From Alphaproteobacteria bacterium (GTDB taxonomy: Bacteria; Pseudomonadota; Alphaproteobacteria; Rs-D84): a stretch of DNA of 64,000 bases. Positions 7,227-58,100 of the stretch are shown here, in pieces (position 1 is the first letter of the stretch; every line of letters begins with the position of its first letter). The stretch spans positions 11,769-75,768 of the forward strand of contig JAFVFD010000002.1 in assembly GCA_017475605.1 (NCBI GenBank). Direction: 5' to 3'. The notes under the pieces are model-generated. The model saw only the letters and a program-made list of their open reading frames with translations. It ran no database searches and was not told where the DNA came from. The position numbers and the translations under genes are program-made.

Positions 7227-7794
7227 ATTTCCTTAAGTCATAAACAAATAGTTTGTGTGGATATTTATATCGACCATAACGTGTGGAACCATGGCCAACA
7301 TCAATTATGTGTGTCGGCTTTAATTCATCAATTGGCACATCAAGTGTGATAATCATATCAAATTGTTTTGTGTATTCCGCCAACCGATAATTAGTGTTCG
7401 GTCCCAGGTACGCAACCCCTATATCAAATCTTGGCGATGATTTTAAATATTCAAACGCATCGCATTTTATAATTTGAATATGCGTGCGTGCGAACCAATT
7501 GGCGATGCGTGAAACAGTTATGGTAAATGGCATGTTTTCCAATGCCACGACCGTCGCATTACAATTCCGCGCGATATATCGTGCCAGTCCGCCATATCCC
7601 GCACCAATATCAACAATCGATGTCGCGTTTGGGTAATATTTATTTATGGTACGTACCACTGCGCGACGCAAACGCTTTGCACTGGCCACAAATGGTATTT
7701 GATTGTGCGCAATGCACCAAATATATTCCGCGCCATATACGATGATATACAATTCGCCGATAAAAATTAAAAACGCAATTATGTACGCAATCAT
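7225..7794 (-). CDS. Class I SAM-dependent methyltransferase with an N-terminal TM helix
   Basis: Motif I VDIGAGYGG. 189 aa. Confidence 0.6.
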   Translation of the reverse strand: MIAYIIAFLIFIGELYIIVYGAEYIWCIAHNQIPFVASAKRLRRAVVRTINKYYPNATSIVDIGAGYGGLARYIARNCNATVVALENMPFTITVSRIANWFARTHIQIIKCDAFEYLKSSPRFDIGVAYLGPNTNYRLAEYTKQFDMIITLDVPIDELKPTHIIDVGHGSTRYGRYKYPHKLFVYDLRK

Positions 7795-11766: not shown

Positions 11767-11843
11767 GCGCCCATGGCTCAATTGGATAGAGCATCTGACT
11801 ACGGATCAGAAGGTTGAGGGTTCGAATCCTTCTGGGCGCGCCA
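11767..11843 (+). tRNA. tRNA-Arg (anticodon ACG)
   Basis: Folded by hand. Acceptor GCGCCCA/TGGGCGC. D-arm GCTC..GAGC. Anticodon stem TCTGA/TCAGA with loop CTACGGA. T-arm GAGGG-TTCGAAT-CCTTC. CCA is encoded. Confidence 0.9.
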
Positions 11844-11851
11844 GGTTTAAT

Positions 11852-11880
11852 AAAAAACACCACCTTGTGTGGTGTTTTTT
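11852..11880 (+). terminator. Terminator after tRNA-Arg
   Basis: aaaaaACACCACCttgtGTGGTGTttttt. Confidence 0.8.
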
Positions 11881-11897
11881 ATTAAATATTCTTGATG

Positions 11898-12045
11898 TCG
11901 CCCAGAAGGATGGGTCAGAGTGTCCAAAGGACACGCATGACCAATACGCAGATGAATAATTAAAAAAAATCTTAAAAAATCGACCGAGAGAGATTTTTTT
12001 GATTTTTATTATTATTCATCAAGGGGGAATGAATGGGCGCGCCAG
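11898..12045. repeat. Element B, copy 1. It is bounded on the left by an inverted copy of the tRNA-Arg 3' end and on the right by a direct copy of it. A second copy lies at 39436..39583
   Basis: Left flank CGCCCAGAAGGAT is the reverse complement of tRNA-Arg ATCCTTCTGGGCG. Conserved core GATGGGTCAGAG..GCATGACCAATACGCAGATGAA-AATTA. An AT-rich spacer follows, then ATCAAGGGGG plus GGGCGCGCCAG (the tRNA 3' terminus), then a terminator. Confidence 0.75.
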
Positions 12046-12046
12046 A

Positions 12047-12080
12047 ATAAAACAACACGGCTTTTGCCGTGTTTTTTTAT
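12047..12080. terminator. Terminator copy following element B
   Basis: aaaacaacACGGCttttGCCGTgttttttt. Confidence 0.6.
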
Positions 12081-12082
12081 TC

Positions 12083-12219
12083 TCTGGTCGCCCCAGGATT
12101 TGAACCCGGTCAAGTTGCGCAGCAACGCAGGGTTCGAAAACAAGTAGATTTGATAAACGCAGTGCAATCAAATCGTCACGGTTTGCGCGCAGGCATTTAT
12201 GCCGAGCGAATCCTTCTGG
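12083..12219. repeat. Element A, copy 1 (conserved ~135-nt structured element). A second copy lies at 39240..39385
   Basis: It starts with CTGGTCGCCC, an imperfect inverted copy of the tRNA-Arg 3' end. Next comes GGATTTGAACC (a reverse-complement T-arm), a hairpin, then GGGTTCGAAAACAAGTAGATTTG and a conserved core. It ends in the hairpin GGCATTTATGCC and GAGCGAATCCTTCTGG, which is the tRNA-Arg T-arm 3' half plus acceptor. Confidence 0.75.
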
Positions 12220-12225
12220 ACATGC

Positions 12226-12305
12226 TTTTATTTTTGTTTATCAAGGGGGAATGAATGGGCGCGCCAGGTTTAATAAAAAAACACCGTCTTTTGCGGTGTT
12301 TTTAT
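12226..12305. repeat. Third junction copy: TTTGTTTATCAAGGGGGAATGAAT, then the tRNA-Arg 3' end GGGCGCGCCAG, then a terminator copy
   Basis: It matches the right end of element B and the tRNA 3' end GGGCGCGCCAGGTTTAATAAAAAACACC. The terminator aaaaaaACACCGtcttttGCGGTGTtttt also serves the minus-strand OMP gene. Confidence 0.7.
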
Positions 12306-25130: not shown

Positions 25131-25283
25131 TCAAAAAACCACCTAAACAGGTGGTTTTTAAAATTTTGGTGCGAGCAAAGTACTTCGGCAATTTCATTGC
25201 CTTGCCTCGCAACTCGCCCCTTTGCCGACAAAATCAAAAAACCACCCAAACAGGTGGTTTTTAAAATTTTGGTGCGAGCAAAG
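25131..25283. repeat. Two direct copies (~47 nt each, ~105 nt apart) of the tRNA-Gly 3' end plus its terminator hairpin. The segment between them carries an inverted fragment of the same tRNA
   Basis: AAAAACCACC[T/C]AAACAGGTGGTTTTTAAAATTTTGGTGCGAGCAAAG occurs at 25131..25180 and again at 25237..25283. GCCCCTTTGC in the intervening segment at 25214..25223 is in the sense orientation of the minus-strand tRNA, so it is inverted relative to the gene. Confidence 0.8.
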
Positions 25284-25346
25284 GGGCTCGAACCCTCGAC
25301 CTCAACCTTGGCAAGGTTGCGCTCTAGCCAACTGAGCTACGCTCGC
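25270..25346 (-). tRNA. tRNA-Gly (anticodon GCC)
   Basis: Reverse complement: GCGAGCG-TA-GCTC-AGTTGGCTA-GAGC-G-CAACC-TTGCCAA-GGTTG-AGGTC-GAGGG-TTCGAGC-CCCTT-TGCTCGC-A-CCA. This is a perfect cloverleaf with CCA encoded. Confidence 0.88.
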
Positions 25347-39097: not shown

Positions 39098-39115
39098 TTC
39101 AGCATATTGATATCC

Positions 39116-39206
39116 GGAGACGTCGCATAGTTGGTCTAGTGCGCCACATTGGAAATGTGGTATACTCGCAAGGGTATCAAGGGTTCGAATCCCTTCGTCT
39201 CCGCCA
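39116..39206 (+). tRNA. tRNA-Ser (anticodon GGA)
   Basis: Acceptor GGAGACG/CGTCTCC. Anticodon stem CCACA/TGTGG with loop TTGGAAA. Long variable arm. T-arm AAGGG-TTCGAAT-CCCTT. CCA is encoded. Confidence 0.88.
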
Positions 39207-39239
39207 GAAAATTACCCCGCATTTGCGGGGTTAATTTTT

Positions 39240-39385
39240 GGCGGATATGTGAGGCAGATTTGAACCATTAGCAACGAATGTTGCTGGGTTCGAAAACAAG
39301 TAGATTTTGCAAGCGCAGCGTGGCGAAATCGTTACGGTTTGCCCGCAGGCACATTGTGCCGAGGGAATCCCTTCGTCTCCGCCAG
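39240..39385. repeat. Element A, copy 2
   Basis: It starts with TGGCGGA, an inverted tRNA-Ser 3' terminus. Then ..CAGATTTGAACC, the hairpin AGCAAC-gaat-GTTGCT, GGGTTCGAAAACAAGTAGATTTTG, a core, and the hairpin GGCACA-tt-GTGCC. It ends with GAGGGAATCCCTTCGTCTCCGCCAG, the tRNA-Ser 3' end. Both hairpins carry compensatory changes relative to copy 1. Confidence 0.75.
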
Positions 39386-39435
39386 AAAATTAAAATCTTA
39401 AAACGCCCCGTTCGGGGTGTTTTTGATTTTAACTG

Positions 39436-39583
39436 GCGTGGACGAAGGGATGGGTCAGAGCGAAGCGCATGACCAATACGCAGATGAACAATTACAAAAC
39501 CTGCAAAAACGGATATTTTTAATAGAGTTTTTGCGTTTAGGTTTTGTTTTTGTTTATCAAGGGGGGGGTATCGTCTCCGCCAG
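39436..39583. repeat. Element B, copy 2
   Basis: GGCGTGGACGAAGGGAT is the reverse complement of the tRNA-Ser 3' end, with 15 of 17 bases matching. Core GATGGGTCAGAGCGAAGCGCATGACCAATACGCAGATGAACAATTA. An AT-rich spacer follows, then TTGTTTATCAAGGGGGGG plus CGTCTCCGCCAG. Terminator copies lie at 39398..39426 and 39598..39625. Confidence 0.75.
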
Positions 39584-39688
39584 AAAATTAAAATCTTAAA
39601 ACACCCGTTCGGGGTGTTTTTTATTTAGGAGGGGGAGGAATTGATTGATTTTTTTATGGTTTTGTGATATAATATGTGCAACTAAACG

Positions 39689-39713
39689 GACGGCATTTGC
39701 CGTCTTTTTTTAT
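39689..39713 (+). terminator. Terminator-like hairpin between the repeat array and the toxin gene
   Basis: GACGGCAtttGCCGTC followed by a T-run. Confidence 0.55.
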
Positions 39714-39758
39714 TTCCACCGCTACGTGCGGGTTTTTTATTTAACAAAAGGAGTTATA

Positions 39759-40910
39759 ATGCAAACACCAAAATTTTTACGCAATTTATTACAATCTAAT
39801 AACTATTGGAATAAAAATAGTACTGAATTCGCAAAAGCAAATGAATATCTGGAAAAGTTATATCCAGTGCAACTGTCCGCTGATTTATCAGGAAGATTTG
39901 TTGAACCGCCATACGATATGACCCTGGAACAATTTGAAAGCGCACAACGGCAATTCGACAAAGATTTGGAAGATGCGATTCATGAAGCAGAAGATTCAGT
40001 AGATGATGCAAATGGAACAGCAGAGCCAATTGACTATGACCAATATGTAGATATTGAAGAAACGATAGATGTTCGTGTTTTGATGCCAGGTGGAAATATA
40101 GAATATATGCAACTTGTCGTATATATGTTGAATTTGCCTGATGATGACACTGATGTGGAACTGGAACCAGATAAAACACAAAGGATTTGGATATGGCACA
40201 GCGAAGAAGACGAAAATGTTTGCGATGATTGTGTATCACACGATGACGAAGTATTCGAAGACAAAGACGATATTCCAGAAATTCCCGTGCATCCTAACTG
40301 TCGTTGTTGGGTTGAAGAAGTAAAGTTAGATGACAACGGTAAACCTATTTCAAGTAAAGCATACAAAGGGCAAAAGCCAGAAATACCGAAAAATGACAAA
40401 GAACCTCAGTCAGAAAAAACGCCAACTTTTGATAAACCTGTTGATATAAAAGAAGGTCAATATGCCACATTTGACGGGAAAAATCTGACTATATTTCAAG
40501 ACGGCAAAGTTGTTGCTTCGTGGAATGCGGTATCAGGTCGTCCAGAGTATCAAAGTCCAGAATATCAAAATCTAAAATCCACAGGTCCAATTCCAGAAGG
40601 TGCATATGTAGCAAGACAAGAAAAATTACAACATATGTCACCAGCAGATTGGGCAATTGGATGGTCCAGAGTTCTGGGAAATAAATTTGGTGGGAAATGG
40701 CCGGGTTCATCTGTTTCTTGGGGAAATTCTCGCGTATGGCTGGAACCTTCAAAAGAAACAAACACTTTTGGACGTGACAAATTCAGTATTCACGGAGGCT
40801 TGTTTCCTGGTTCTGCAGGTTGTATAGATTTGACGGACCAAATAAACTCTTTTACATCTTGGTTGGAAAGTACTGGAAAAGATTTACTGATATATGTAAA
40901 ATATAAATAA
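39759..40910 (+). CDS. Fusion protein with polymorphic-toxin architecture: a MuF-like C-terminal motif (CxxC...HPNCRC) plus a C-terminal L,D-transpeptidase/YkuD-like domain
   Basis: Start taken at MQTPKF with an AAGGAG Shine-Dalgarno (the ORF track starts earlier, at 39645). VCDDCVSHDDEVF...IPVHPNCRCWV resembles the phage Mu F / SPP1 gp7 C-terminal signature. The C-terminus FSIHGGLFPGSAGCIDL resembles the L,D-transpeptidase His...Cys active-site motif. No signal peptide. Confidence 0.5.
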   Translation: MQTPKFLRNLLQSNNYWNKNSTEFAKANEYLEKLYPVQLSADLSGRFVEPPYDMTLEQFESAQRQFDKDLEDAIHEAEDSVDDANGTAEPIDYDQYVDIEETIDVRVLMPGGNIEYMQLVVYMLNLPDDDTDVELEPDKTQRIWIWHSEEDENVCDDCVSHDDEVFEDKDDIPEIPVHPNCRCWVEEVKLDDNGKPISSKAYKGQKPEIPKNDKEPQSEKTPTFDKPVDIKEGQYATFDGKNLTIFQDGKVVASWNAVSGRPEYQSPEYQNLKSTGPIPEGAYVARQEKLQHMSPADWAIGWSRVLGNKFGGKWPGSSVSWGNSRVWLEPSKETNTFGRDKFSIHGGLFPGSAGCIDLTDQINSFTSWLESTGKDLLIYVKYK

Positions 40911-46431: not shown

Positions 46432-49400
46432 CTACCACGATATATATCCTGGATTACACGTCCGTTCGCACTTTTTGGTGGCATTGTTCCACCGCAGCGA
46501 ACCTGTTTCGTCTGAATATGGGCGATCACAAATTGGGACACATTCGTTGTTGTCCAAATTGTACTTTTCGCCTTGATACAGACATGATGCTATTTCGCAA
46601 CCGGTGCTGTAACTGGCCGCGGCAACTTCGCCCAGAACACTGAACTTGTTGCGACATGCGCTGCACTGTTCGGATGCGTTATTCTTTTCGTATGGGTCGT
46701 TCGTATAGCCCGGTACGCACGATGTCGCAATACATTCGTTCCATGAACCCGTTGCGGTGTTCCATGTCTTTGTACCAACACCGTTCGGGACGTTACACAC
46801 CTGTTCATTTTCAACACACGCGTTTGATGCCAGGTGGAACCCATCTTCACACGATTTTATCGTACAGATGCCGAATGCGCCATGTGCTGCATCCCACTTC
46901 TGTGTGGCAACTGTTGCGTTTGGTGCCACGTCTGTACAATCTTTGACATCTTCCTCACAAACACTGTTGTATGGATGGTAACCAATCACGCAGCTTTCAA
47001 TTATACAGTTTCCATCAGGTTTATAGGACAATGCGTTTTCACGATTGCATGGCTTACATGACCCATTGACCATTTCGTAGTTACTGATACACGCTGTTTC
47101 TATACAATGCCCGTCAACAACTTCTGCCGGGTTACCAGTCGCAGATGTACCAGTGTACTGACAATTGTTTGGCCAATAGGCGGTGGTTTCAACTGGGCTA
47201 AGGGTACAATTATCCTCAACATATCCAGTACACTTGCGGTAACAATCGCTTGCCTTGGTGGCCCCAGGGGCTGAATACATCCAACTGCCATCACCCAGGT
47301 CCGCGCAAGATTTCGCGCCGTTGCCACCTTCGCCGCCCGGTGTTCCATCACAGAAACTGCCCGCTGGACAAGTTACACATTGGCCATTGGACAGTGTATA
47401 ACCTGATGCACAAGATGTAATCGCACATGTGTCTGTGGCAGTATAATAATCATGGCCCGACATCGCATTTGCGTTTTCGCCCATTGTACAGTCGCGATAG
47501 CAATATGCCTTATCTATTGTTCCTGCTTCTGACTTTGGATACAACCCACCAGTCAGATATTCGCAGGTTTCTACTTCCTGTCCAGGTTCACATACACTGT
47601 TTTCTGGACATACGAAGCAGGCACGTTCGCTTTCGCTGGTTGCTGTACGTGTTGTTGTCCCCGCCGGACACGCATACCGCGCCAAATCGCGATCTGGGCT
47701 GTAATACGCATAGTCCGCCACAGAACATTCTATATCGGTCGCATTTGCCAACCAATAACCCGCATCGCAGTACAGCATAGTTGGGGTTCCGCAACCGGCC
47801 AGGTACGCATCATCCGCAACACTCCATTTACATGTGCGTTCGCCACCACCATGTTCCGCAACATACGGTTGTCCATTCTTCCAGCATTCAGATATCGTAC
47901 TGGTGTTGTTGTATGATGTCTTACCTTCGTTCGGACACGCATGACGTTCCAGTTCGTCTTCAATGCTGTAATAGTTGAAGTCTACGACAGTACATGCGAT
48001 ATCTGTTTGTGCCGCCAAATAATACCCACCACGACACTTTGTAATAACCTTGTCAAAGCAATCGCGTCCATAAACCGCACTATTTCCTGTGCCATTTGAA
48101 TACCAGCAACTTTGTGTCCCAGTACCCGACCCATCGGTCGCCGCATAGGCCAAATTCGCCTTGAAGCATTCCTGGACCGTTTCCGCGGTTGTGTTATCAG
48201 ACTTCGTTGTACCGCCATTCGGGCACGCATCACGTGTTAATATATTGTTCGCACTGTAATACCCGACACCGGCCGCTGAACAATCGGTGCCTGTTGTGGT
48301 TGCCAACCAATGACCCGCATCACAGGATGTTATTACAAAGTCTTTACATCTGTCGGAATAGGCCAGGGCTGTTTCGTTGTAATAACATGTTTGTGTACCG
48401 CGTCCATGTGTTGCAACATATGTTGGCAACAATTCTTTATAACATGCCGCACTGCTTTCCGAATTGGCAGGCGATTTACCATCGTCCGGACAGGGTTCAA
48501 TACCTGCCTGGCCAGAATTTGTAACGACGGTTACACCAGGGCAATAGTTGTTTGCCGTACATGGTAAACAGTCTGTTGTCGGATTTTCGCCGGCACCGCG
48601 ATAATATTTACCCACTGGACATGTAATAGGTGCATCGGTCCATTGTGCAGAAACCGTAGCATTGGATGTTGTAAATGTCAGTGCGGCCGTTGTTGTTACA
48701 AATTTGCCGTCCGCATCAACAACAGATACATTATTCCCTGTGTATCCAGCGAATGTCAACACACCCTTGACCGGTTTTGTGGTCAGTGTGGTAATTGCCG
48801 TTGTGGCGGCTGCATTTGAATACCAGCCGGTCGCATACTTCAAATACACCTTGGCCGGTGAACCAGCGGTTGTCGCACCATTGTGATTCAATGTGATTTC
48901 ATACACATTCGGTGTCCACTGGGCAAACAATTCAATATCAGATGCATCAGACGATATATTTGTCGTAACCGTAGTACCCGCGTTATAGCATGTGCCACCA
49001 CCATTCGCCGCGGTGCACCATTTGTTCGCGGTGCTGTACCCGGTGCGTGTATCCACAATCGCCGGTAATGCGCATGCGCCACTGTCGAATGTGCACTTTA
49101 CACTTGGTGCGGTTGAACCCGTACCACCATTTTTGTTAAGGGTAATGGTGTATTCGTGTGCATCGCATGTTGGTGCGGCGGTGTTGTTGTTTTTGACATC
49201 ATAACCGGTCTTGCACACTACATTGTATGAACAAGCATTATATGTTGTCGCGCTGTTACCATACACGATATTTTCCGCGGCGGATACAGTCTTGGAATTT
49301 GCGAAATCCGCAGGTGTTTTATCGCATTCGGTATAGCATGCGGTGTAACTTGCCGCGAATTCTGTTGAACCCGCCCAGCCCGCCGGACATTCCGTTTGGG

Positions 49401-52400
49401 TTGTTGCACCATCACCACTGTAATAACCGCTTGTTGTGCCGGAACACGCGAACGAACCGGCGACCCTGTAAAAGTATCCCGCGTTACAGGTCAAAGCATC
49501 GGCATCCATACAGTTATTATAATCACCACTAACTTCTGTGCCGTTGTAATAGCATGTGGCGAAACCTGTACCATTTGCCCAATTGTGATTTGGATAGCCG
49601 GTTGTTGCGGTATATGGATTATATGTTACATAACAAGTCTCAATACCACGATATTTTTGACCTTCAACCAGGGCGGCCTTGCCCGGGGTGCCATCTTTGT
49701 CGGTCGGACAGTCGTGGAATCCATCTGTATCGCACCACATATCTTCTGGGCAAACATTGGAACTATAGATACATTTGTTATAAGCATTTGTCGTTGTGTT
49801 ATAGGAAACATGTTGGCTTACCACATTAACGGTAGTTCCGTTCAGATTCTTGGTTGCTTTACATGTCAAATAACAATCTGTAATCGCTTTACCATTTGTC
49901 GCACTGCCAGTATTTGGTGTGTTGCTGACCACATCGCCAGATGTATCTGTACCCGCGGGGCACACATTTAATTTAGTAGATGTGGTATCTGTTATATTTG
50001 TTTCGTTCCAATTAGTCGGGGCAGGACTCCAATTGCCATCGCCAACCGCAACACAGTCCAGATTTTCATTTGTACTTGTTGCGCCGTCTAATTCATCATA
50101 GTATCCAGCATCACACTTGCGCATTGTATAACTGTTGCCGCAATTGATTGAATAGGTGTTGTTAACAGTGCTCCAATGGCAACGTTTTGTGCGACCACCA
50201 TGAGTTGTCTTTTCCCAAATGCCTTCGCGGACACAACCTTCTATCGAGCCACTTTCATCACCATCTGTGGATATCGTATTACGGGAATCATCAACATCGT
50301 ACACAGCTTCTGGACAGCGTGTGCGTGCGGTAAAGTTGGTCGCACTGTAATATTGATAACCAACCAAAGAACAGTCAGTTGTTGTTTTGGTTGTATCCAA
50401 CCACCAACCACTGTTACATGTCAATATTTCAATTGTATTACAGTCGGAATTATACTTGCCCGCACTGTAATGGCAAACCTGCTTACCCTTACCATGATCT
50501 GCGCTGTATTGTACTGTGGCAAAGCAGTCTGATTCTTCGTCTCTGCCATTGTCAGAACCAACACTTGGGGCAACATTGGAAAGCGCGGTGCCGTTCCAGG
50601 TTTGTGCCGGGGTATATGTTGTCCCCGCAACCGCAGTTGGACAGGCGTTTATAAAGTGATTCTGGCCATCGCGGTCTTCGTCGCTGTATGCGACACCACC
50701 CGGACACCATGACCCATTCGGACAAGACTTACATGCGTTGTCTGCATCATCAAAATATTGTCCCGCATTACATGTCTTGGTCTTTTTAGCAACCCAACTT
50801 GCTGTCAGGGTTGTTGTAGTTGTGGTATCGGTATAATTTACCAGTTTATTGGTCGCCACGATTTGACCGGTGCCATTTATCACAGCAACCTGGGTTCCGC
50901 CAATCGTTGCATCATAGCCAGAACAATTCTGTGAGCCCTTGGTTGGCAGCACGATGCTTGTTATCGCGTTTGTCGCGGCGGCATTTGAATACCAGCCTTT
51001 GCCATATTTCATATAGATTGGACCATCTGTACCACCGGTACCACCATCTTTTGCTAATATGAATGTATAGATGTTTGGTTCACATGTTGTACCAGATGTA
51101 TGATAGCCGGCAACGCATACTGGGTTTTGCCAGGTGCATGTTCCAAATGTACCACTTGTTGTAACGGTTTTGTTCGTTGGGTTGTATGCCGTTATGGTCC
51201 CGGCAAAACTGACCGTTTCCGCAACCGGCGCACGTGTACCAATTACTTCGCCATTGTCGGTAACATTCACCGATGAACAAGAGTTATAACATGCTGTCGG
51301 CAAAGCACTCTTTTCGCCTTCTGTTGTGGAATTGATGTGTCCAGGCAAAGCACTACATGGATAGCGCGCCATACTTACAGCGTCTTCTGTGTTATTTGTC
51401 GGGGCGGGGCTCCAATTGCCTTTACCCGCTGGTTCACAGGTAGAAGAATCTTCTGCAACGCGATAATAACCACCACTGCAGTATTTAATTTTTATAGATT
51501 CACAGTTCTTATACCCGGCACTTGAATCATCAACATAATTGCAAACCTGGTCGCCACCACCGGTTCCATTGGCCAAGGCCACACCTGTTCTTGTCGTTTT
51601 ACATGCGGTAACAGCAGAACTGCCCGCCGGTGATGTTACGGCCCCGCCAGATGTGTCTGTTGGGCAAGTCTTATGGCACCCGTCATCTGCCTTGTCTTTG
51701 TCTTCGTAGTCAACCTGGCCACCTGGGCAATAGAAGCCAGCAGGGCATTCTGCGTCAGAACCAGTTAACCCAGCGGTACATGTGAACAAGTTTGTTGACC
51801 AACGGGCATACAACGTGTCAAATACACCCGCGGTTGATGCGGTGCCGCCTTCGGCTGTGTCGGCAATACCAATGGTTGTTGCTACCGACAGATTACCAGA
51901 GGCATCGATTACTTGAACCCCACCTGTTTTTTCAGATACGGTATAGTAGCCCATAAATGTGTGATTTTCCCATGTCGGCGGTGTAATCTTGGTTACCGTT
52001 GTGCCAAAGTTAGTCAAAGACCACCCAATTGAATATTTTTCATATATGGTCTTGTTTGTGCCCGGCGCACCGTTAAGGTCAAGTGTTATTGTGTACACCT
52101 TGGGATCACATGTACCCGCTGTTGCGTTTTTATCATAATTGCCCATGCAGGTATATGTCATGGCACAACTTGACGGCATCGCGGTACATCCGCATAACAC
52201 ACCGTCTATATTATTACAAGTGCCATCGCAATAATAGTCTGCACCACTTGTTTTTGCGTTTTCATTTTGGGTGCATGTCTTATTGTTGGCTGGGCATACT
52301 TGCGGTGTACAATACAAAGAGCATGTTGTATAGCATGTTCCACACGCACCACCTGTGTTGCCAAGTATCGACTGATTGTAGCCGGTTGTACTACAAGATT

Positions 52401-54987
52401 CGCATGTTCTTGTTTCTGTATTTTCGAAATATCTGTTCTTACACCAAACTTGTTTAAGTTGGCATGCAGTATTGTTTACATTAGTACATGCAGAACTTCC
52501 ATAATCTGAAATACCAGCAACCTTGTTTTCTGTATCATAAGAACAATTTGTTGAGTTTGTTGGGCATGTGCTTGGTTCAACACAAGTTGCGGTGTTACAT
52601 GTTTTATAGCAGCCCGCAGATGTTGTCGATGCCGCATCAGACTTGGTATATTCCGATCCCAATGTTGTACAGGCAACAAAGCATCCCGCGCTACCTTCAA
52701 TAGCAGTTCCGGTGCCCGGACAGTATTTACCGTCGGTTGGGCAATCTACGTGTTGTTCGCCATCGTAGTATTTACCAGCCTGACATTGAACGGTATTTTG
52801 AGACCAATGTGCATATAGTGTTGTATTGGTGGTCTTATCCCAAAGACGCAAAGAAACACCACTTGCGGAATAATATTGTGTTCCGCCTGTTTGTGCATCA
52901 AAATACCCGGCAAAAGACCATGTGGCGCGTGTCGGCAATTCAGAAGCAGACAAGGCCGGCAGATGCGCATCGTATGTCGCCGTAACTGATGATTTACAGC
53001 CCGTTCCACACGTGCCTTCATTTGCGTTCAGTGTAACTTGATATTCTAATGGTTCGCAATATGTGCCATCATCACTTACTTTATATCCTTCTGTACAAGA
53101 GAATGGTTCGTCATCGCCCGGACAGGTGGCATGTGGAACGCATGCGTTACAACCGTTGCCGGACAGATAATAATTTTCAGCACACGCAGTTGCCGCGCAA
53201 TTGTTTTCCCCATTTTTATGATAAATGCCAGATACCGTCTTTGAACCCGCAACATCGGATACCTTACATTCACGATAACAATAATTCGAATCGGTTGTTC
53301 CCTGGACTGAATAAGGGAATGTCGAATTAGATGCCGAACATAATGTACAATTTGTCGCGGTCGTAGATGCAAAGTAATTAGCGGCAGCCACAACCGGCGC
53401 AACAACCGTTTTGTTACATGTGTTTGTGTTTGTTTCACAGCCGCTCTTTATGGTGCCATCGGCGGTACCTGTCGCGTTCGAATATGCGACATAATCGCAT
53501 GTCGCCGGTGTACAATCTTGGAATGTGGCAGAAACGCAACCGTTTGGTAATGTTTCAATATGTGCGCCACTTGATGTACGCTGTTTGGTCTCGCTGAAAC
53601 ATTGGGTGATGGCGGTCGATGTCGTGCTTTCTGTGTGTGGGTATGCCGTAGGGCATGTTTCGCATGCCGCATTCGCCTTGGCGGATGATGCCTTGTACTT
53701 GTTGTATCCGCATGCAGTCCACACCGCATAAACCGTTTTGTCAGTTGTTATTGTTATTGTATACGAACCAGTCGTCGCAGATGCAGATGTTGCCCAGCCA
53801 CCAAATACATAGCCCGCACGATAGAACGAGTTTGTATCACCACTGGCCAGTGTACATTCAACCCCGGATGCACATTGTTTGTTTGCTGGTTTTGTCCCAT
53901 CACCACCATTCAGGTTATATGTTACAGTGAACGTATCTTGGGAATAATTGCCGGTAAATGTAACTGTGCCGGAATACACCCCAAGGTTTTCATAGGTACA
54001 CGCAATACCGGTTTGTCCACTGCCGAATGATTTAGTAACCAAAGTACTTGGAACCCATGATCCAAATGACCAATTGTCAACAGTTGGTGCGGTTGCCGCA
54101 TTAAATGTTTCGCCATATGTACATGACGCAGGGGTTGTTGGTGCAGTACCTTTTGTTGGTGCCCAAACAAAGTTAATCGTGTTTGGTGTCGCGGTACATG
54201 TATATGATGTCGCACCTGCGGTTGAATTGGTTTGTGTGGTATTTGTGGTATAGCCTTGGTCGGCTTCTACACTATACACACACTTGTTGTCGTTTGAAGT
54301 TGTGGATGCGGTACAGGTCTTTACCCCCGTACCCTTGGTGGCAAGACACGCACTACATGCATACGGTGCAGACCCTGTGCGAACATATTTTGAACTACAT
54401 GTTTTAATCGTACAAAGGTTAGTTATAATATTGTTGTTCCAGGCCGTTGTTTCCCAGTTTGCGACATTAGACGCATTGGCGCAGTTTGCATCGCAACTGG
54501 TCTTGCCGGTACCACTGGTGGTTTTGCCTGCGGCACACGCGGTACAGGATGTGTTGCCGGTACCGGTATTGTATGAACCTGTGGCACACGCAATACACGC
54601 ACTTTCGGCACTGCTGCCGGTGCTGGCATTGTATGTTCCGGCGGAACATGCTGTGCGACCACCAACATCATCATAATGTACAGTAACTCCGCCCGGACAA
54701 TATCCGCCGGCGGTACAGGTCGTTTCGCCCGCACCAGCGGTTGCTACATACTTACCGGCCGTTGTTGTTAAATAACAGTTGTTTATGCCACCTGTGGTAT
54801 TATCAGATGCACTGTTTGGATAGTTTGTTGGGCATTTTGCGCACTGACTGGACCCATCAAGGTAATAACCGGCATTACAGCTGATGTATGTTTTTTCGCA
54901 TGAATAGCCCTCGGCAAAAGAATTCGCCGAAAATGCGAACAGAAACAAACCAACGAAAAACCCGAGAAAACAGCGCTTTCTTCCCAT
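46432..54987 (-). CDS. Giant secreted cysteine-rich repeat protein 1 (~2850 aa). It has Listeria-Bacteroides (Flg_new) repeats, ephrin-receptor-like CxxCPxGxYC modules, a reiterated ~70-aa Cys module, and a ~500-aa C-terminal region shared with gene 2
   Basis: Signal peptide MGRKRCFLGFFVGLFLFAFSANSFA, with the start at 54987 preceded by AGAGAGGAAG. YTITLNKNGGTG...TGYSTANKWCT and YEITLNHNGATTAG...FAGY are Flg_new-like. Many modules of the type CLPCTANNYCPG and CKSCPNGSWCPGG. Repeated module CDAGYWL..C...YYS..R..CP.G. Confidence 0.85.
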   Translation of the reverse strand: MGRKRCFLGFFVGLFLFAFSANSFAEGYSCEKTYISCNAGYYLDGSSQCAKCPTNYPNSASDNTTGGINNCYLTTTAGKYVATAGAGETTCTAGGYCPGGVTVHYDDVGGRTACSAGTYNASTGSSAESACIACATGSYNTGTGNTSCTACAAGKTTSGTGKTSCDANCANASNVANWETTAWNNNIITNLCTIKTCSSKYVRTGSAPYACSACLATKGTGVKTCTASTTSNDNKCVYSVEADQGYTTNTTQTNSTAGATSYTCTATPNTINFVWAPTKGTAPTTPASCTYGETFNAATAPTVDNWSFGSWVPSTLVTKSFGSGQTGIACTYENLGVYSGTVTFTGNYSQDTFTVTYNLNGGDGTKPANKQCASGVECTLASGDTNSFYRAGYVFGGWATSASATTGSYTITITTDKTVYAVWTACGYNKYKASSAKANAACETCPTAYPHTESTTSTAITQCFSETKQRTSSGAHIETLPNGCVSATFQDCTPATCDYVAYSNATGTADGTIKSGCETNTNTCNKTVVAPVVAAANYFASTTATNCTLCSASNSTFPYSVQGTTDSNYCYRECKVSDVAGSKTVSGIYHKNGENNCAATACAENYYLSGNGCNACVPHATCPGDDEPFSCTEGYKVSDDGTYCEPLEYQVTLNANEGTCGTGCKSSVTATYDAHLPALSASELPTRATWSFAGYFDAQTGGTQYYSASGVSLRLWDKTTNTTLYAHWSQNTVQCQAGKYYDGEQHVDCPTDGKYCPGTGTAIEGSAGCFVACTTLGSEYTKSDAASTTSAGCYKTCNTATCVEPSTCPTNSTNCSYDTENKVAGISDYGSSACTNVNNTACQLKQVWCKNRYFENTETRTCESCSTTGYNQSILGNTGGACGTCYTTCSLYCTPQVCPANNKTCTQNENAKTSGADYYCDGTCNNIDGVLCGCTAMPSSCAMTYTCMGNYDKNATAGTCDPKVYTITLDLNGAPGTNKTIYEKYSIGWSLTNFGTTVTKITPPTWENHTFMGYYTVSEKTGGVQVIDASGNLSVATTIGIADTAEGGTASTAGVFDTLYARWSTNLFTCTAGLTGSDAECPAGFYCPGGQVDYEDKDKADDGCHKTCPTDTSGGAVTSPAGSSAVTACKTTRTGVALANGTGGGDQVCNYVDDSSAGYKNCESIKIKYCSGGYYRVAEDSSTCEPAGKGNWSPAPTNNTEDAVSMARYPCSALPGHINSTTEGEKSALPTACYNSCSSVNVTDNGEVIGTRAPVAETVSFAGTITAYNPTNKTVTTSGTFGTCTWQNPVCVAGYHTSGTTCEPNIYTFILAKDGGTGGTDGPIYMKYGKGWYSNAAATNAITSIVLPTKGSQNCSGYDATIGGTQVAVINGTGQIVATNKLVNYTDTTTTTTLTASWVAKKTKTCNAGQYFDDADNACKSCPNGSWCPGGVAYSDEDRDGQNHFINACPTAVAGTTYTPAQTWNGTALSNVAPSVGSDNGRDEESDCFATVQYSADHGKGKQVCHYSAGKYNSDCNTIEILTCNSGWWLDTTKTTTDCSLVGYQYYSATNFTARTRCPEAVYDVDDSRNTISTDGDESGSIEGCVREGIWEKTTHGGRTKRCHWSTVNNTYSINCGNSYTMRKCDAGYYDELDGATSTNENLDCVAVGDGNWSPAPTNWNETNITDTTSTKLNVCPAGTDTSGDVVSNTPNTGSATNGKAITDCYLTCKATKNLNGTTVNVVSQHVSYNTTTNAYNKCIYSSNVCPEDMWCDTDGFHDCPTDKDGTPGKAALVEGQKYRGIETCYVTYNPYTATTGYPNHNWANGTGFATCYYNGTEVSGDYNNCMDADALTCNAGYFYRVAGSFACSGTTSGYYSGDGATTQTECPAGWAGSTEFAASYTACYTECDKTPADFANSKTVSAAENIVYGNSATTYNACSYNVVCKTGYDVKNNNTAAPTCDAHEYTITLNKNGGTGSTAPSVKCTFDSGACALPAIVDTRTGYSTANKWCTAANGGGTCYNAGTTVTTNISSDASDIELFAQWTPNVYEITLNHNGATTAGSPAKVYLKYATGWYSNAAATTAITTLTTKPVKGVLTFAGYTGNNVSVVDADGKFVTTTAALTFTTSNATVSAQWTDAPITCPVGKYYRGAGENPTTDCLPCTANNYCPGVTVVTNSGQAGIEPCPDDGKSPANSESSAACYKELLPTYVATHGRGTQTCYYNETALAYSDRCKDFVITSCDAGHWLATTTGTDCSAAGVGYYSANNILTRDACPNGGTTKSDNTTAETVQECFKANLAYAATDGSGTGTQSCWYSNGTGNSAVYGRDCFDKVITKCRGGYYLAAQTDIACTVVDFNYYSIEDELERHACPNEGKTSYNNTSTISECWKNGQPYVAEHGGGERTCKWSVADDAYLAGCGTPTMLYCDAGYWLANATDIECSVADYAYYSPDRDLARYACPAGTTTRTATSESERACFVCPENSVCEPGQEVETCEYLTGGLYPKSEAGTIDKAYCYRDCTMGENANAMSGHDYYTATDTCAITSCASGYTLSNGQCVTCPAGSFCDGTPGGEGGNGAKSCADLGDGSWMYSAPGATKASDCYRKCTGYVEDNCTLSPVETTAYWPNNCQYTGTSATGNPAEVVDGHCIETACISNYEMVNGSCKPCNRENALSYKPDGNCIIESCVIGYHPYNSVCEEDVKDCTDVAPNATVATQKWDAAHGAFGICTIKSCEDGFHLASNACVENEQVCNVPNGVGTKTWNTATGSWNECIATSCVPGYTNDPYEKNNASEQCSACRNKFSVLGEVAAASYSTGCEIASCLYQGEKYNLDNNECVPICDRPYSDETGSLRWNNATKKCERTCNPGYISW
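48660..49290. repeat. Near-identical intragenic repeat, copy 1 of 3 (Flg_new pair unit). The other copies are at ~57320..57960 and ~59700..60250
   Basis: The ORF track shows identical spurious peptides (MPPPFAAVHHLFAVLYPVRVSTIAGNAH..., MIQCDFIHIRCPLGKQF...) at all three places. A DNA comparison by eye shows only scattered mismatches over ~500 bp. Boundaries are approximate. Confidence 0.8.
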
Positions 54988-55061
54988 AACTTCCTCTCTT
55001 TTATATTTCATGGTAGAAAAAATATATGGGGTAGTGCAAGAATAAAATTAACAAAATATAA

Positions 55062-55103: not shown

Positions 55104-58100
55104 TTACCACGATATATATCCTGGATTACATGTCCGTTCACACTTTTTGGTGGCATTGTTCCACCGCAGCGAACCTGTTTCGTCTGAATATGGTTTGGCA
55201 CAAATTGGGACACATTCATTATTTTCCAAATTGTACTTTTCGCCTTGATACAGACATGATGCTATTTCGCAACCGGTGCTGTAACTGGCCGCGGCAACTT
55301 CGCCCAGAACACTGAACTTGTTGCGGCATGCGCTGCACTGTTCGGATGCGTTGTTCTTTTCATACGGGTCGTTCGTATAGCCCGGCACGCACGATGTCGC
55401 GACGCATTCGTTCCATGAATTTGTTGTGGCATTCCATGTCTTTGTACCAACACCATGTTCAATGTCGCATGCTTGTTCGTTTTCAACACATGCGTTTGAC
55501 GCCAGGTGGAACCCATCTTCACACGATTTTATCGTACAGATGCCGAATGCGCCATGGGTCGCATCCCATTTCTGAGTCGCCGCGGTTGCGTGTGGTGCGG
55601 CGCAGCCTTTGACATCTTGTTCACAAGTGTTGTTGTATGGGTGATATCCGATTGTACAACTTTCAATCACGCAATTTCCGTCTGATTTATAGGACAGGGC
55701 ATTTTCACGATTACATGGCTTACACGACCCATTAATCATTTCATAATGGCTGTTACATGATGTTTCAACGCAACGTCCGTCAACAACTTCCGCTGGGTTA
55801 CCGGTTGCAGATGCACCAGTGTACTGACAATTGTTCGGCCAATAAGCAGTATTTTCAACCGGTGTTAATGTACATGTGTCTTCAATATATTCTGTACACA
55901 TACGGTAACAATCGCTTGCCTTATTAGCACCTGGGGCTGAATACATCCAACTGCCATCACCCAGGTCCGCGCAAGATTTTGCGCCGTTGCCACCATCGCC
56001 ACCCGGTGTTCCATCACAGAAACTGCCCGCGGGACAGGTTACACATTGACCGTTGGATAAACTGTAACCCGGTGCGCACGATGCAATTTGGCATGTGTCC
56101 GCGGCGGTATAGAAATCGCGTCCAGACATGGTGTTTGCGTTTTCGCCCATTGTACAGTCGCGATAGCAATATGCGGCATCAGTTGTTCCGGCATCTGATT
56201 TTGTAAATTGTCCACCGGTTAGACTATCACACGTTGCCACCTCTAATCCTGGTTCACATACACTGTTTTCTGGGCAAATAAAGCATGCGCGTTCATTTTC
56301 ACTGGTTTGTGTGCGTGTTGTAGAACCCGCCGGACACGCATACCGCGCCAAATCGCGATCTGGACTGTAATACGCATAGTCCGCCACAGAACATTCTGTA
56401 TCTGTTCCGTTCGCCAACCAATAACCGCCGTTACAATATGTCATTGTCGGAACACCGCAACCGGCCAGATAGGCATTATCCGCAACACTCCACTTACATG
56501 TGCGTTCACCACCACCATGTTCCGCAACATACGGCTGACCGTTCTTCCAGCATTCAGATATCGTACTTGTGTTATTGTATGATGTCTTACCTTCGTTCGG
56601 ACACGCATGACGTTCAAGTTCGTCTTCAATGCTGTAATAGTTGAAGTCTACGACAGTACACGCGATATCTGTTTGTGCCGCTAAATAATACCCACCACGA
56701 CACTTCGTAATAACCTTGTCAAAGCATTCGTGTTTATAGACGGCATCGTTTCCGGTACCACTTGAATACCAGCAACTTTGTGTCCCGGTACCCGAAGAAT
56801 CTGTTGCGGTATAATCAAGGTTTGTCTTAAAGCATTCGTCAACGGTTTCCGCGGTTGTGTTATCAGACTTTGTTGTACCGCCATTCGGGCACGCATCACG
56901 TGTTAATATGTTATTCGCGCTGTAATACCCGACACCGGCCTCCGAACAATCGGTGTCTGTTGTGGTTGCCAACCAATGACCCGCATCACAGGATGTTATT
57001 ACAAAGTCTTTACATCTGTCGGAATAGGTCAGGGCATTTTCATTGTAATAGCATGTTTGTGTACCACGACCATGTGTCGCAACATATGTTGGCAACAATT
57101 CTTGGAAACACATTGTCGCACTTGCGGTACCAACCAAAGACTTACCGTTGTCTGGGCATTCATCGATACCTGCCTGACCAGAGTTAGTCATTACGGTTAC
57201 ACCAGAACAATAGTTGTTTTCCGTACATGGCAGGCAGTCCGTTTCGGGCATTTCACCGGTGCCACGATAATATTTACCCGCCGGACATGTAATAGGCGCA
57301 TCGGACCATTGTGCCGTCAATGTGGCATCGGCCGTCGTAAATGTTAATATCGCGGATGTTGTGGCGAATTTACCATCAGAATCGATTACAAAAACATTGC
57401 TTGTATTCTTGTATCCGTCAAATTTTAATACACCCTTGACCGGTTTTGTGGCAAGTGCTGTAATTGCCGTTGTGGCGGCTGCATTAGAATACCAGCCGGT
57501 CGCATACTTCAAATACACCTTGGCCGGTGAACCAGCGGTTGTCGCACCATTGTGATTCAATGTGATTTCATACACATTCGGTGTCCACTGGGCAAACAAT
57601 TCAATATCAGATGCATCAGACGAAATATTCGTCGTAACCGTAGTACCCGCGTTATAACATGTACCACCACCATTCGCCGCGGTGCACCATTTGTTCGCGG
57701 TGCTGTACCCGGTGCGTGTATCAACAATCGCAGGTAATGCGCATGCGCCACTGTCGAATGTACATTTTACACTTGATGCGGTTGAACCCGTACCACCATT
57801 TTTGTTAAGGGTAATGGTGTATTCATGTGCATCGCATGTTGGTGCGGCGGTGTTGTTGTTTTTGACATCATAACCGGTCTTGCACACAACATTGTACGAA
57901 CATGCGTTATATGTTGTTGCACTGTTACCATATACGATGTTTTCTGCGGCGGATACAGTCTTGGAATTCGCGAAATCCGCGGTTGTTTTGTCGCATTCGG
58001 TATAGCATGCGGTGTAACTGCCGGCGTTAGCCGTTGAACCAGCGCAACCGGCCGGACAGGCAATTTGATAAGTAGAAGAGCCTGCCTGCGCGACGGTCGG

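Follow-up and report, generated by a model that had tools for sequence, protein, structure and literature searches.

Gene-less structured cassettes with inverted copies of tRNA 3' ends form tandem arrays behind tRNA genes of uncultured gut and rumen Alphaproteobacteria

The 3' ends of tRNA genes are classic landing pads of genomic islands, and the specificity for these sites is usually credited to dedicated integrases. Tandem tRNA-anchored elements have been described as tycheposons (10.1101/2020.12.28.424599). In integrons, the bottom strand of the attC site recombines in a folded form (PMC3458562), and IS608 is a precedent for element ends that consist of a guide and hairpins (PMC3201880, PMC5027513). 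Here we analyze element B, which is present behind two tRNA genes in a stretch of 64,000 nucleotides (nt) from an Alphaproteobacteria bacterium (assembly GCA_017475605.1, contig JAFVFD010000002.1, positions 11,769 to 75,768 of the forward strand), in the following called the window. B forms cassettes of ~200 base pairs (bp) that contain neither genes nor promoters and are organized in tandem arrays at tRNA 3' ends of uncultured small-genome Alphaproteobacteria from gut and rumen. This family is previously undescribed, and no description of it was found in the literature on tRNA-linked hairpin or miniature elements. We file B among the tRNA-anchored integrative elements. Several of its features are unusual and go beyond ordinary integration at tRNAs, namely, an obligatory inverted copy of the tRNA end with a fixed edge in the T-loop, a strand-specific fold, the lack of genes and promoters, and the presence of one core at many tRNAs. 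We favor, with a probability of roughly 0.4, the reading that B is a non-autonomous mobile cassette, transported in trans in the form of folded single-stranded DNA, whose inverted flank would pair with the tRNA end.

An earlier note, made from the letters of the window alone, had placed two copies of B at 11898..12045 and 39436..39583. Both positions were confirmed, but the extent of the element had been set too small, because the real unit begins directly after the CCA of the tRNA and includes its own terminator. The functional units comprise 11844-12044 at the Arg locus and about 39385-39582 at the Ser locus. The Arg array is anchored at tRNA-Arg(ACG) (11767..11843, + strand; ARAGORN, Rfam, folds), the last 11 nt of which are the left copy of a direct repeat, while its nt 59-76 are the 5' arm of a long hairpin, H0, that is described below. 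Terminator and spacer of B(Arg) follow (11844..11898, + strand), with a 19-bp stem at 11845-11887 that was identified by a terminator scan and has a homolog with the B(Arg) units of the loci L050 and L011. The inverted flank CGCCCAGAAGGAT (11899..11911, + strand) is the reverse complement of tRNA-Arg nt 59-71 at 13 of 13 bases, ends with GGAT, and pairs with 11826-11838 in H0. The core (11912..12027, + strand), defined by folds, alignment, and covariation, consists of hairpin P2 (11913-11942), the junction AATACGCA (11943-11950), the AT-rich hairpin P3 (11951-12020), and the tail AAGGGGG. The direct flank TGGGCGCGCCA (12034..12044, + strand) is a copy of tRNA-Arg nt 66-76 (11/11 bases) and is followed by a terminator at 12054-12083; in strain L030 the same terminator directly follows tRNA-Arg.

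The Ser array is anchored at tRNA-Ser(GGA) (39116..39206, + strand; ARAGORN, Rfam). Here, terminator and spacer of B(Ser) are located at 39385..39433 (+ strand), and the stem at 39400-39423 is the tip of an 85-nt hairpin. The inverted flank TGGCGTGGACGAAGGGAT (39434..39451, + strand) is the reverse complement of tRNA-Ser nt 59-76 at 16 of 18 bases, and the 15 of 17 bases counted before contain the same two mismatches. The core (39452..39562, + strand) comprises P2 (39453-39474), the junction (39475-39482), P3 (39483-39558), and the tail AAGG, and the direct flank TCGTCTCCGCCA (39571..39582, + strand), a copy of tRNA-Ser nt 65-76 (12/12 bases), is followed by a terminator at 39598-39620. The flanks at both loci are thus of the kind that had been proposed. 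The conservation of the core between both loci was also borne out by the identical 22-mer GCATGACCAATACGCAGATGAA, which has two exact matches in the window and none in the shuffled window (100 shuffles, up to three mismatches allowed). The right-end motif TTTGTTTATCAAGGGGG, believed to be common to both copies, is indeed present in the Ser copy (39549-39565), but the copy at 11898-12045 has ATTATTCATCAAGGGGG instead, and TTTGTTTATCAAGGGGG at the Arg locus belongs to a second tail at 12233-12249. A short peptide shared by both copies (..HDQYADE) had been regarded as probably not a real gene. The alignment agrees with that view: the reading frame is not conserved across copies, because the insert in P2 varies in length by non-multiples of three, and a protein-coding function was ruled out. 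An ATG in the left flank of the Arg copy (11910-11912) is in a different frame that has a stop about 17 codons further on.

A scan of 185,579 species genomes for an exact 20-mer yielded 23 loci, i.e., 16 true copies of B and 7 occurrences in an unrelated coding gene. All 16 copies are in metagenome-assembled genomes (MAGs) of uncultured rumen or gut Alphaproteobacteria (Ca. Enterousia; RUG, RGIG, and UBA series). A metagenome scan of rumen and gut samples added 24 further copies and one coding coincidence, and about 45 copies are known in total. The eight matches in coding sequences (L009, L010, L012, L014, L019, L023, L025, L046) are chance identities and unrelated to B; all but L046, which is a different coding sequence, represent one Betaproteobacteria-type gene (..TNTQMK..). 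Two of these seven contigs carry the label Bifidobacterium and look mis-binned. A covariance model of B, built from 20 copies, retrieved only the two known copies in the window (125.5 bits for the Arg core and 157.9 bits for the Ser core) and a few diverged copies elsewhere, designated B'. Only the three tRNAs of the window passed the gathering score in a search against Rfam 15, and a scan of 39100-39700 at E<=10 gave nothing credible over B or over a second element, A; B was therefore rejected as a known RNA. Blastn searches of phage genomes and plasmids gave no match to B, no exact core was present in viral contigs, and B was likewise rejected as the end of a known phage, plasmid, or viral element. 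The refuting case named before, that the core might turn out to be part of a larger known element, has thus been answered in the negative by Rfam, phages, plasmids, and viral contigs.

Nearly all copies of B follow a tRNA gene of the same strand, on its 3' side and at a distance that ranges from a few tens to a few hundreds of bases. Nine tRNA species are used as hosts, i.e., Arg-ACG, Ser-GGA/CGA/TGA, Gln-TTG/CTG, Tyr, Pro, and Glu, and the tRNA genes beside the units are intact. MAG UBA3760 has B behind three different tRNAs (L008, L024, L026) and the window has it behind two, and therefore it is unlikely that a single sequence-specific double-strand integrase is responsible. The claim that the flanks are derived from the local tRNA and are locus-specific holds true for about 45 copies at the nine tRNA species, and a full-length copy without such flanks, which would have contradicted it, was not found. 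In all copies, the left flank is the reverse complement of the tRNA from nt 59 out to nt 71-76 and ends with GGAT. Its length is 10-18 nt, most often 13 nt (nt 59-71), and it extends as far as the CCA in the copies at Ser and Glu and in some of those at Tyr. Because it always starts at nt 59, the junction with the core is invariably ..GGAT|(C/G)GGTCAGAG, and the inner edge of the inverted flank is always within the T-loop, between nt 58 and nt 59. The right flank is a direct copy of nt 62/66-76, has a length of 11-15 nt, and ends with CCA, followed by a terminator. It is preceded by a purine-rich tract, AAGG(G)n, and the B tail TTTATCAAGG mimics nt 44-53 of tRNA-Ser and tRNA-Gln. No short duplication is present outside of the inverted repeats, which are target-derived and differ between loci. 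It had been argued that such flanks are hard to explain by a duplication of the attL/attR type. The inverted flank is indeed unusual, but the direct flank together with the tRNA end represents an ordinary repeat of this type with a length of 11-15 nt. The additional proposal of a crossover in the palindromic T-loop agrees with the constant edge at nt 58/59, and such a crossover may take place.

The left and right flanks overlap by 6-13 nt and can pair to a helix, P1, which has only 6-7 bp in most copies. In terms of the tRNA, the left flank equals nt 2-7 of the acceptor 5'-strand plus the 5' strand of the T-stem, and thus P1 mimics an acceptor stem with a free NCCA end. The possibility that the flanks form a stem (cruciform) had been raised before, and P1 is present in the predicted folds of both window copies (z about -6), but it is not the strongest pairing. 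The strongest partner of the inverted flank is the 3' end of the preceding tRNA, across the terminator, and not its own right flank (6-13 bp). When the 110 nt ending at ..GGAT were folded for 35 copies, ATCC (starting at tRNA nt 59), CCA, trailer, terminator, and inverted flank formed a single hairpin of 57-92 nt, H0, in 29 of them, with the terminator at the tip. With DNA parameters, its z-scores are -8.6 (Ser) and -10.2 (Arg). H0 comprises 13-18 bp plus the stem of the terminator and is much stronger than P1. As both H0 and P1 are possible, the inverted flank has two partners, the upstream tRNA end and its own right flank. A putative hairpin-type mobile element, as had been suggested, is in line with the strongly hairpin-prone and strand-specific nature of B, but no recombinase or transposase was linked to it. 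Taken together, the earlier observations were confirmed and extended to further tRNAs, and their interpretation is supported in part.

The core of ~125 nt has a conserved three-way fold of a short hairpin, P2, a junction, and a long AT-rich hairpin, P3 (alignment and RNAalifold). P2 is formed by GGUCA/UGACC around a variable hairpin, and some copies have two or three hairpins at this place. The junction between P2 and P3, AAUACGCA, is invariant. P3 has the base GAUGAACAAU/AUUGUUUAUC and an AT-rich extension in at least four interchangeable versions, and the tail AAGG comes after it. RNAalifold revealed double compensatory changes in nine predicted pairs, and in the B' copies the sequences of P2 and of the base of P3 have been replaced, while the pairing was kept. 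Among 20 copies, one pair of P3 is a G.T in 14 and a G-C in 6. A comparison of both strands showed a more stable fold of the + strand for 30 of 31 copies, with a mean difference of 6.1 kcal/mol. The better folding of the + strand and the conserved G.T pair thus indicate that the folded strand is the tRNA-sense strand. Across both arrays, the + strand shows a mildly positive GC skew, a weak hint that the folded strand is the lagging-strand template.

The moving unit consists of terminator, spacer, inverted flank, core, tail TTTATCAAGG, and direct flank, and is located at the 3' end of the tRNA. The B(Arg) units of the window, L011, L050, and L051 have related terminators on their left side, while the terminator that is conserved beside the downstream chromosomal gene is found at the far right of the array. 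In L011, two units whose cores differ greatly are found in succession. The same 49-nt terminator-spacer stands ahead of both of them, and the last unit ends directly in unique DNA. The shared left terminators, the distal position of the native terminator, and the tandem units of L011 show that the left terminator belongs to the unit. An insertion behind the terminator with a long target duplication was rejected, because across species the left terminator stays with the unit and the native one is distal. The crossover appears to occur somewhere within the last 11-15 nt of the tRNA. Intrinsic terminators bracket each unit on both sides, no sigma-70-like promoter was predicted within the units, and B was therefore dismissed as having a promoter of its own. 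The arrays differ across related strains and species, with B and A in the window, B alone in L050, and B and B' in L011 and L051. L030 has neither B nor A, and a terminator from a lost A unit has remained; it is thus not a clean empty site. A second B(Arg) unit of L050 is away from any tRNA and joined to the 5' part of a lipoprotein-gene paralog. This junction lies exactly after 14 shared nt, CGCGCCACGATTTA, which represent the end of tRNA-Arg and the start of the unit's terminator, and suggests recombination guided by short identity. It was discarded as a full insertion at a secondary site, because only its left junction is readable.

Under the preferred reading of a cassette moved in trans, B would enter and leave by recombination within the last 11-15 nt of the tRNA gene, and the exchange would take place on the tRNA-sense strand, while this strand is single-stranded and folded. 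The inverted flank would base-pair with the tRNA 3' end, i.e., with the target copy and with the element's own right end, and this pairing would present the cleavage or crossover site to an enzyme that is supplied in trans. The action might be like that of the hairpins of integron attC and CTX-phage attP(+), or like that of the guide-plus-hairpin ends of IS200/IS605, with a long guide re-matched to each tRNA. The cassette's own terminator would keep the interrupted tRNA gene properly terminated. A double-strand integrase would need a new specificity for each tRNA, but a reader of the folded strand would not, because the inverted flank would supply the recognition by pairing. Several observations weigh against this proposal. 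The copies are related, and the statistics of strand bias and covariation overstate their independence and represent a consistent pattern rather than independent events. Whole hairpin modules have been swapped between lineages (e.g., in L050), which can mimic compensatory changes, and the structural signals would also be explained by a folded RNA. Neither a pristine empty site nor a circular junction was seen, the non-tRNA junction of L050 is interpretable on its left side only, and the differences between strains could stem from homologous recombination or deletion instead of active transposition. Pfam searches with ten open reading frames (ORFs) beside B copies in other MAGs revealed no recombinase or reverse transcriptase domain. 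Motif screens for tyrosine and serine recombinases, DEDD, Y1-HUH, and reverse transcriptase covered all examined loci; a tyrosine recombinase motif is absent from the window and 60 loci, and the ~0.5 Mb of examined sequence did not contain a tyrosine recombinase, a Y1-HUH transposase, or a reverse transcriptase. Furthermore, nearly all copies were found with an exact 20- or 22-mer, and thus the diversity of the family is under-sampled.

B is accompanied by other cassettes. Element A, with the shared core GGGTTCGAAAACAAGTAGATTT, is also found behind tRNA-Arg and tRNA-Ser in the window. Family A is structured and conserved, with the consensus GGTTCGA(A/C)AA..AGTAGATTTT..AAATCGT(C/T)ACGGTT..CCGCAG..GAGGGAATCC, and occurs at tRNAs for Arg, Ser, Gln, and Pro, in the window (12087-12232 and 39239-39384) as well as in L007, L008, L026, L036, L042, L053, and L057. 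On the right it ends with tRNA nt 58-76 in direct orientation, while on the left the 3' third of the tRNA, including a T-loop, is present in inverted and degenerate form. At four loci a B-type tail is present between A and the final tRNA copy. The second cassette of the Arg locus (12046..12266, + strand) contains a terminator, a degenerate inverted tRNA-like segment (12087-12112), a family-A core (12130-12215), the B-type tail (12233-12249), and a direct flank (12256-12266); it is missing from L030, and the native terminator (12277-12303), which is kept in L050, comes after it. The family-A cassette of the Ser locus (39207..39384, + strand) has a terminator at 39214-39231, an inverted segment (TGGCGGA..), the A core, and a direct copy of tRNA-Ser nt 58-76 (39366-39384). 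The order is therefore tRNA, terminator-B, terminator-A (plus the second B-type tail), terminator at the Arg locus and tRNA, terminator-A, terminator-B, terminator at the Ser locus. Family C (..CGAAAGGGGCCCA..hairpin..TGGGAAT..ACAATCC plus tRNA end) is found at tRNAs for Tyr, Glu, and Arg (L018 about 6930-7100, L024 about 7230-7360, L021 about 2240-2330, and L056) and starts with an inverted copy of the tRNA end, TGGTGGGAGTGG... The third tRNA of the window, tRNA-Gly(GCC) (25270-25346, - strand; ARAGORN, Rfam), is followed by the smallest example of the cassette design (25167..25346 including the tRNA, - strand). Its last 14 nt plus the terminator are repeated near-exactly, with a 49-nt insert between the copies. 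The tRNA-proximal end of this insert is a degenerate inverted copy of the 3' part of tRNA-Gly (25213-25229), followed by a 32-nt insert and the direct tRNA-Gly copy (25167-25180), and tRNA end, terminator, and inverted flank fold into a long hairpin (z -6.3). As Arg, Ser, and Gly are all followed by units, all three tRNA genes of the window carry them. There is a minor, yet substantial chance that B, A, and C together are a new class of non-autonomous single-strand mobile elements, with a target that is set by base-pairing instead of recognition of DNA by a protein. A 13-18-nt segment beside a conserved hairpin would pair with the tRNA 3' end, and changes of this segment and of the right end that matches it would have redirected one core to at least nine tRNAs, in some cases in the same genome.

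The Arg and Ser arrays are surrounded by housekeeping genes, and no recombinase is present within 10 kb of them. The one genuine match of the motif screens is a Pin-like serine recombinase of 199 amino acids (aa; Resolvase plus HTH_38; L041 6944-7543, - strand), ~150 nt upstream of a tRNA-Tyr end copy and a B unit. In the clade it is extremely well conserved (more than 120 protein clusters, identities of 83-100%) and was also examined in L058-L067. The recombinase has a conserved upstream region of ~230 nt and variable DNA on both sides, and a sequence similar to the B tail, GTTGAT..N33..TTTATCAACC, is found in this region. Downstream of the recombinase, L058-L060 have a partial tRNA-Gln and a terminator. 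In L065 the recombinase lies within an island between tRNA-Gln and tRNA-Glu, and in L062-L064 it precedes a 64-aa ORF, behind which a 519-aa large serine recombinase adjoins tRNA-Gln(CTG). The 64-aa ORF and the 519-aa recombinase (L062 6731-8497, L063, L064, and L061 9615-10600), abutting the 3' end of tRNA-Gln(CTG), look like an integrated element. The recombinase cassettes end in copies of tRNA-Gln or tRNA-Tyr and have no B-like sequence of their own. Both recombinases are candidates, and their tie to B is one adjacency only. An invertible switch driven by the Pin-like recombinase was rejected: relative to the tRNA, about 45 of about 45 cores point the same way, and thus there is no sign of inversion. 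The interval from tRNA-Gln(TTG) to tRNA-Glu(CTC), 3.7-5 kb in length, has wholly different genes in each MAG (L004, L006, L007, L013, L036, L058, L065), including HD/ART-PolyVal, Peptidase_S51, an RNase_T exonuclease, and a sigma70_r4-like protein, and is a hotspot of gene exchange. B is located at the tRNA-proximal edge of this island, and extra copies of tRNA ends are present inside of it. An inverted-repeat motif, GAGTTCGAAAGT..(about 30 nt)..ACTTTCGAAC, is found at the edge of variable cargo by the tRNA-Gln arrays and the large serine recombinase (L004, L007, L013, L038, L047, L049, L055, L058-L060, and L062, e.g., L062 8330-8400); it may be an attachment or operator site and has the same TTCGAA palindrome as the T-loop. 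Directly after the Ser array (39645-40910 and on) follow genes for a Tlde1-domain protein, a small ORF, a phage-type lysozyme, and a Y-family polymerase; this stretch, possibly an islet, has a slightly different gene content in strain L002. Two adjacent giant ORFs on the - strand (46432-55011, 2859 aa, and 55104-63800, 2898 aa) fill the final 18 kb of the window.

Three other explanations have to be weighed against the preferred one. The main rival, although rather unlikely in our view, is that B is a structured non-coding RNA gene that is carried as cargo and is transcribed together with the tRNA gene or read through from it. P1 with its NCCA would then enable tRNA-processing enzymes to cut and stabilize the RNA; it would copy pairs 2-7 of the acceptor stem, plus T-stem pairs in some copies, and the position behind tRNAs would only reflect integration. 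The location of the structure on the strand of the tRNA, its conserved G.U pair, and the lower energy of the + strand are compatible with this explanation, as are the invariant junction nucleotides combined with variable peripheral hairpins that are typical of many RNAs, the resemblance of the left flank to the acceptor and T-stem strands, the CCA-ended right flank with a terminator after it, and the constant orientation relative to the tRNA. However, no promoter-like site was found in the units, a strong terminator separates each of them from the tRNA promoter, and Rfam does not contain a relative. Moreover, the 6-7 bp of P1 in most copies compete with the 13-18 bp formed with the upstream tRNA end, which in RNA would unfold the tRNA, and an RNA by itself leaves the matching of flanks and tRNAs unexplained. 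That B, A, and C are inert att-site remnants, similar to cis-mobilizable elements (CIMEs), of larger tRNA-integrating islands with ordinary double-strand recombinases is unlikely. The enzyme could be the large serine recombinase beside tRNA-Gln(CTG) or the clade-wide Pin-like recombinase, and the inverted flank would be the quasi-palindromic second half of an attP or a by-product of a crossover in the T-loop TTCGAA. Tandem tRNA-anchored arrays are known from tycheposons (10.1101/2020.12.28.424599), and the hypervariable Gln-Glu intervals with their extra tRNA-end copies, the recombinase genes near the tRNA-Tyr copy and B in L041, upstream of the partial tRNA-Gln in L058-L060, and at tRNA-Gln(CTG) in L062-L064, as well as the resemblance of the B tail to tRNA-Ser/Gln, fit well to this origin. 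The same is true for the constant end of the inverted flank at nt 58|59 and for the start of the direct flanks of A and C with AATCC at nt 58. However, in inert scars a core of 125 nt with its invariant junctions and compensated helices would not persist across nine tRNA contexts and many MAGs, nor would the same core be expected at three tRNAs of a single genome or a strand asymmetry of the fold at a double-strand site. In addition, the half-sites of a serine-integrase attP abut, but those of B are 125 nt apart, and a recombinase adjoins B at only 1 of about 45 loci; its flanks are variable everywhere, and thus it may simply be an island resident.

It is highly improbable that the cassettes originate from reverse transcription, either of a pre-tRNA that snaps back on its terminator and is copied to nt 59, or primed by a tRNA at an 18-nt site, with the cDNA being joined to B and integrated by homology, comparable to the retroplasmid-tRNA hybrids of Neurospora or to a miniature long terminal repeat (LTR) element. 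The complement of tRNA nt 59-76 matches a retroviral primer-binding site in length and boundary, and the longest inverted flanks (17-18 nt, starting with TGG, at Ser, Glu, and Tyr) are exactly this complement. The palindrome includes trailer and terminator, as a snap-back copy would, a purine-rich AAGG(G)n is ahead of the direct flank, and the layout of an end-pairing stem, short hairpins, and one long hairpin recalls a retron msr-msd RNA. However, no reverse transcriptase motif is present in any examined locus, and most copies have only 13 nt (nt 59-71) without TGG. The inverted parts of A and C extend across the T-loop, and a stop at nt 58 is therefore not general. Identical terminal repeats are predicted by such a mechanism, but the terminators flanking the units differ at the Arg locus of the window and in L053. 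A miniature LTR element was rejected on the same grounds, and because the primer-like site is full-length in a minority of copies only.

The presence of one 125-nt core at nine tRNAs with flanks from the respective tRNA end means that the element is matched to its target by complementarity or that the flanks are regenerated from the target. If either is true, this would be a new way to make or aim a mobile element and could be a lead to an enzyme with a guide of DNA or RNA, and if the base-pairing reading is true, B would be a natural programmable DNA-insertion system. If B is an RNA instead, it would represent a new, widespread tRNA-mimicking class that is missing from Rfam. As the cassettes are at the edge of hypervariable islands, they may help to explain gene exchange in small-genome gut symbionts.

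How does B compare with known systems? The msr-msd region of retrons has a closing stem, short hairpins, and one long hairpin. B shares terminal inverted repeats that close a stem, one to three short hairpins followed by a long one, guanosines after the 5' arm, and a length of ~150 nt. In contrast to retrons, B has no adjacent reverse transcriptase, a terminator and unrelated genes downstream, many copies per genome, a tRNA-derived closing stem, and no match to a retron-type Rfam family. The 178-bp repeats distal to E. coli tyrT each start with a copy of the last ~19 nt of the tRNA. Unlike B, they are known only from a single locus of one species and are not known to have an inverted copy or a hairpin core that recurs across tRNAs. 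Miniature inverted-repeat transposable elements, which derive from DDE transposons, have terminal inverted repeats of their own and a short target-site duplication. The inverted repeats of B are target-derived and vary by locus, and a short duplication outside of them is lacking. Tycheposons, CIMEs, and satellite islands are similar in that new insertions at the tRNA 3' end push older ones outward and a partial tRNA copy follows each element, and the direct repeats of the tRNA 3' end, with restoration of the tRNA, are also found for B. Tycheposons also resemble B in occurring in streamlined genomes, and gene-carrying units are present in the same arrays as B. However, tycheposons and CIMEs are kilobase-sized, carry genes, use tyrosine or large serine integrases, and have no inverted tRNA copy, whereas the B units have 200 bp, are structured and gene-less, and contain an obligatory inverted tRNA segment.

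The similarities to integron attC and CTX attP(+) comprise the alternation of a long imperfect hairpin with a cargo segment in arrays of promoter-less units (PMC3458562, PMC5027507), diverse site sequences with one architecture, a crossover (putative for B) near the base of the hairpin, and an array at one fixed chromosomal site. Strand-specific folding, a hallmark of integron sites, is also found for B (30/31 copies, conserved G.T pair). However, B lacks R''/R' boxes (RYYYAAC/GTTRRRY) and has the boundaries ATCC..CCA and ..GGAT instead, no IntI or Xer-type recombinase was found near the arrays, the arms of the hairpin duplicate the 3' end of the local tRNA, with a tRNA as anchor and own matching cassettes for each tRNA, and the cargo is a conserved structured 125-nt core without an ORF. 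With the single-strand transposons of the IS200/IS605 family and their gene-less derivatives, i.e., palindrome-associated transposable elements (PATEs) and repetitive extragenic palindromes and bacterial interspersed mosaic elements (REP/BIME) with their REP-associated tyrosine transposases (RAYT), B shares two subterminal hairpins on one strand, P2 on the left and P3 on the right. The single-stranded segment just 5' of the left hairpin complements the flanking target, as the guide of IS608 does, insertion occurs 3' of a defined sequence, the target strand is likely the lagging-strand template, and small non-autonomous copies are, or in the case of B would be, served in trans (PMC3201880, PMC5027513, PMC3333891). 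The whole plan of IS608 can thus be recognized in B, i.e., guide, left hairpin P2, linker, right hairpin P3, and a right end complementary to the guide. In contrast to IS200/IS605, the guide of B has 10-18 nt in Watson-Crick pairing instead of 4 nt in non-canonical pairing, the units have flanking direct repeats of 11-15 nt while IS200/IS605 elements leave none, a terminator hairpin is present between target and guide, and the ~0.5 Mb that were examined contain no Y1-HUH gene. As B has flanking direct repeats and lacks attC boxes, and as no Y1 transposase was found in the examined sequence, we propose only that it may work like these elements and do not assign it to them.

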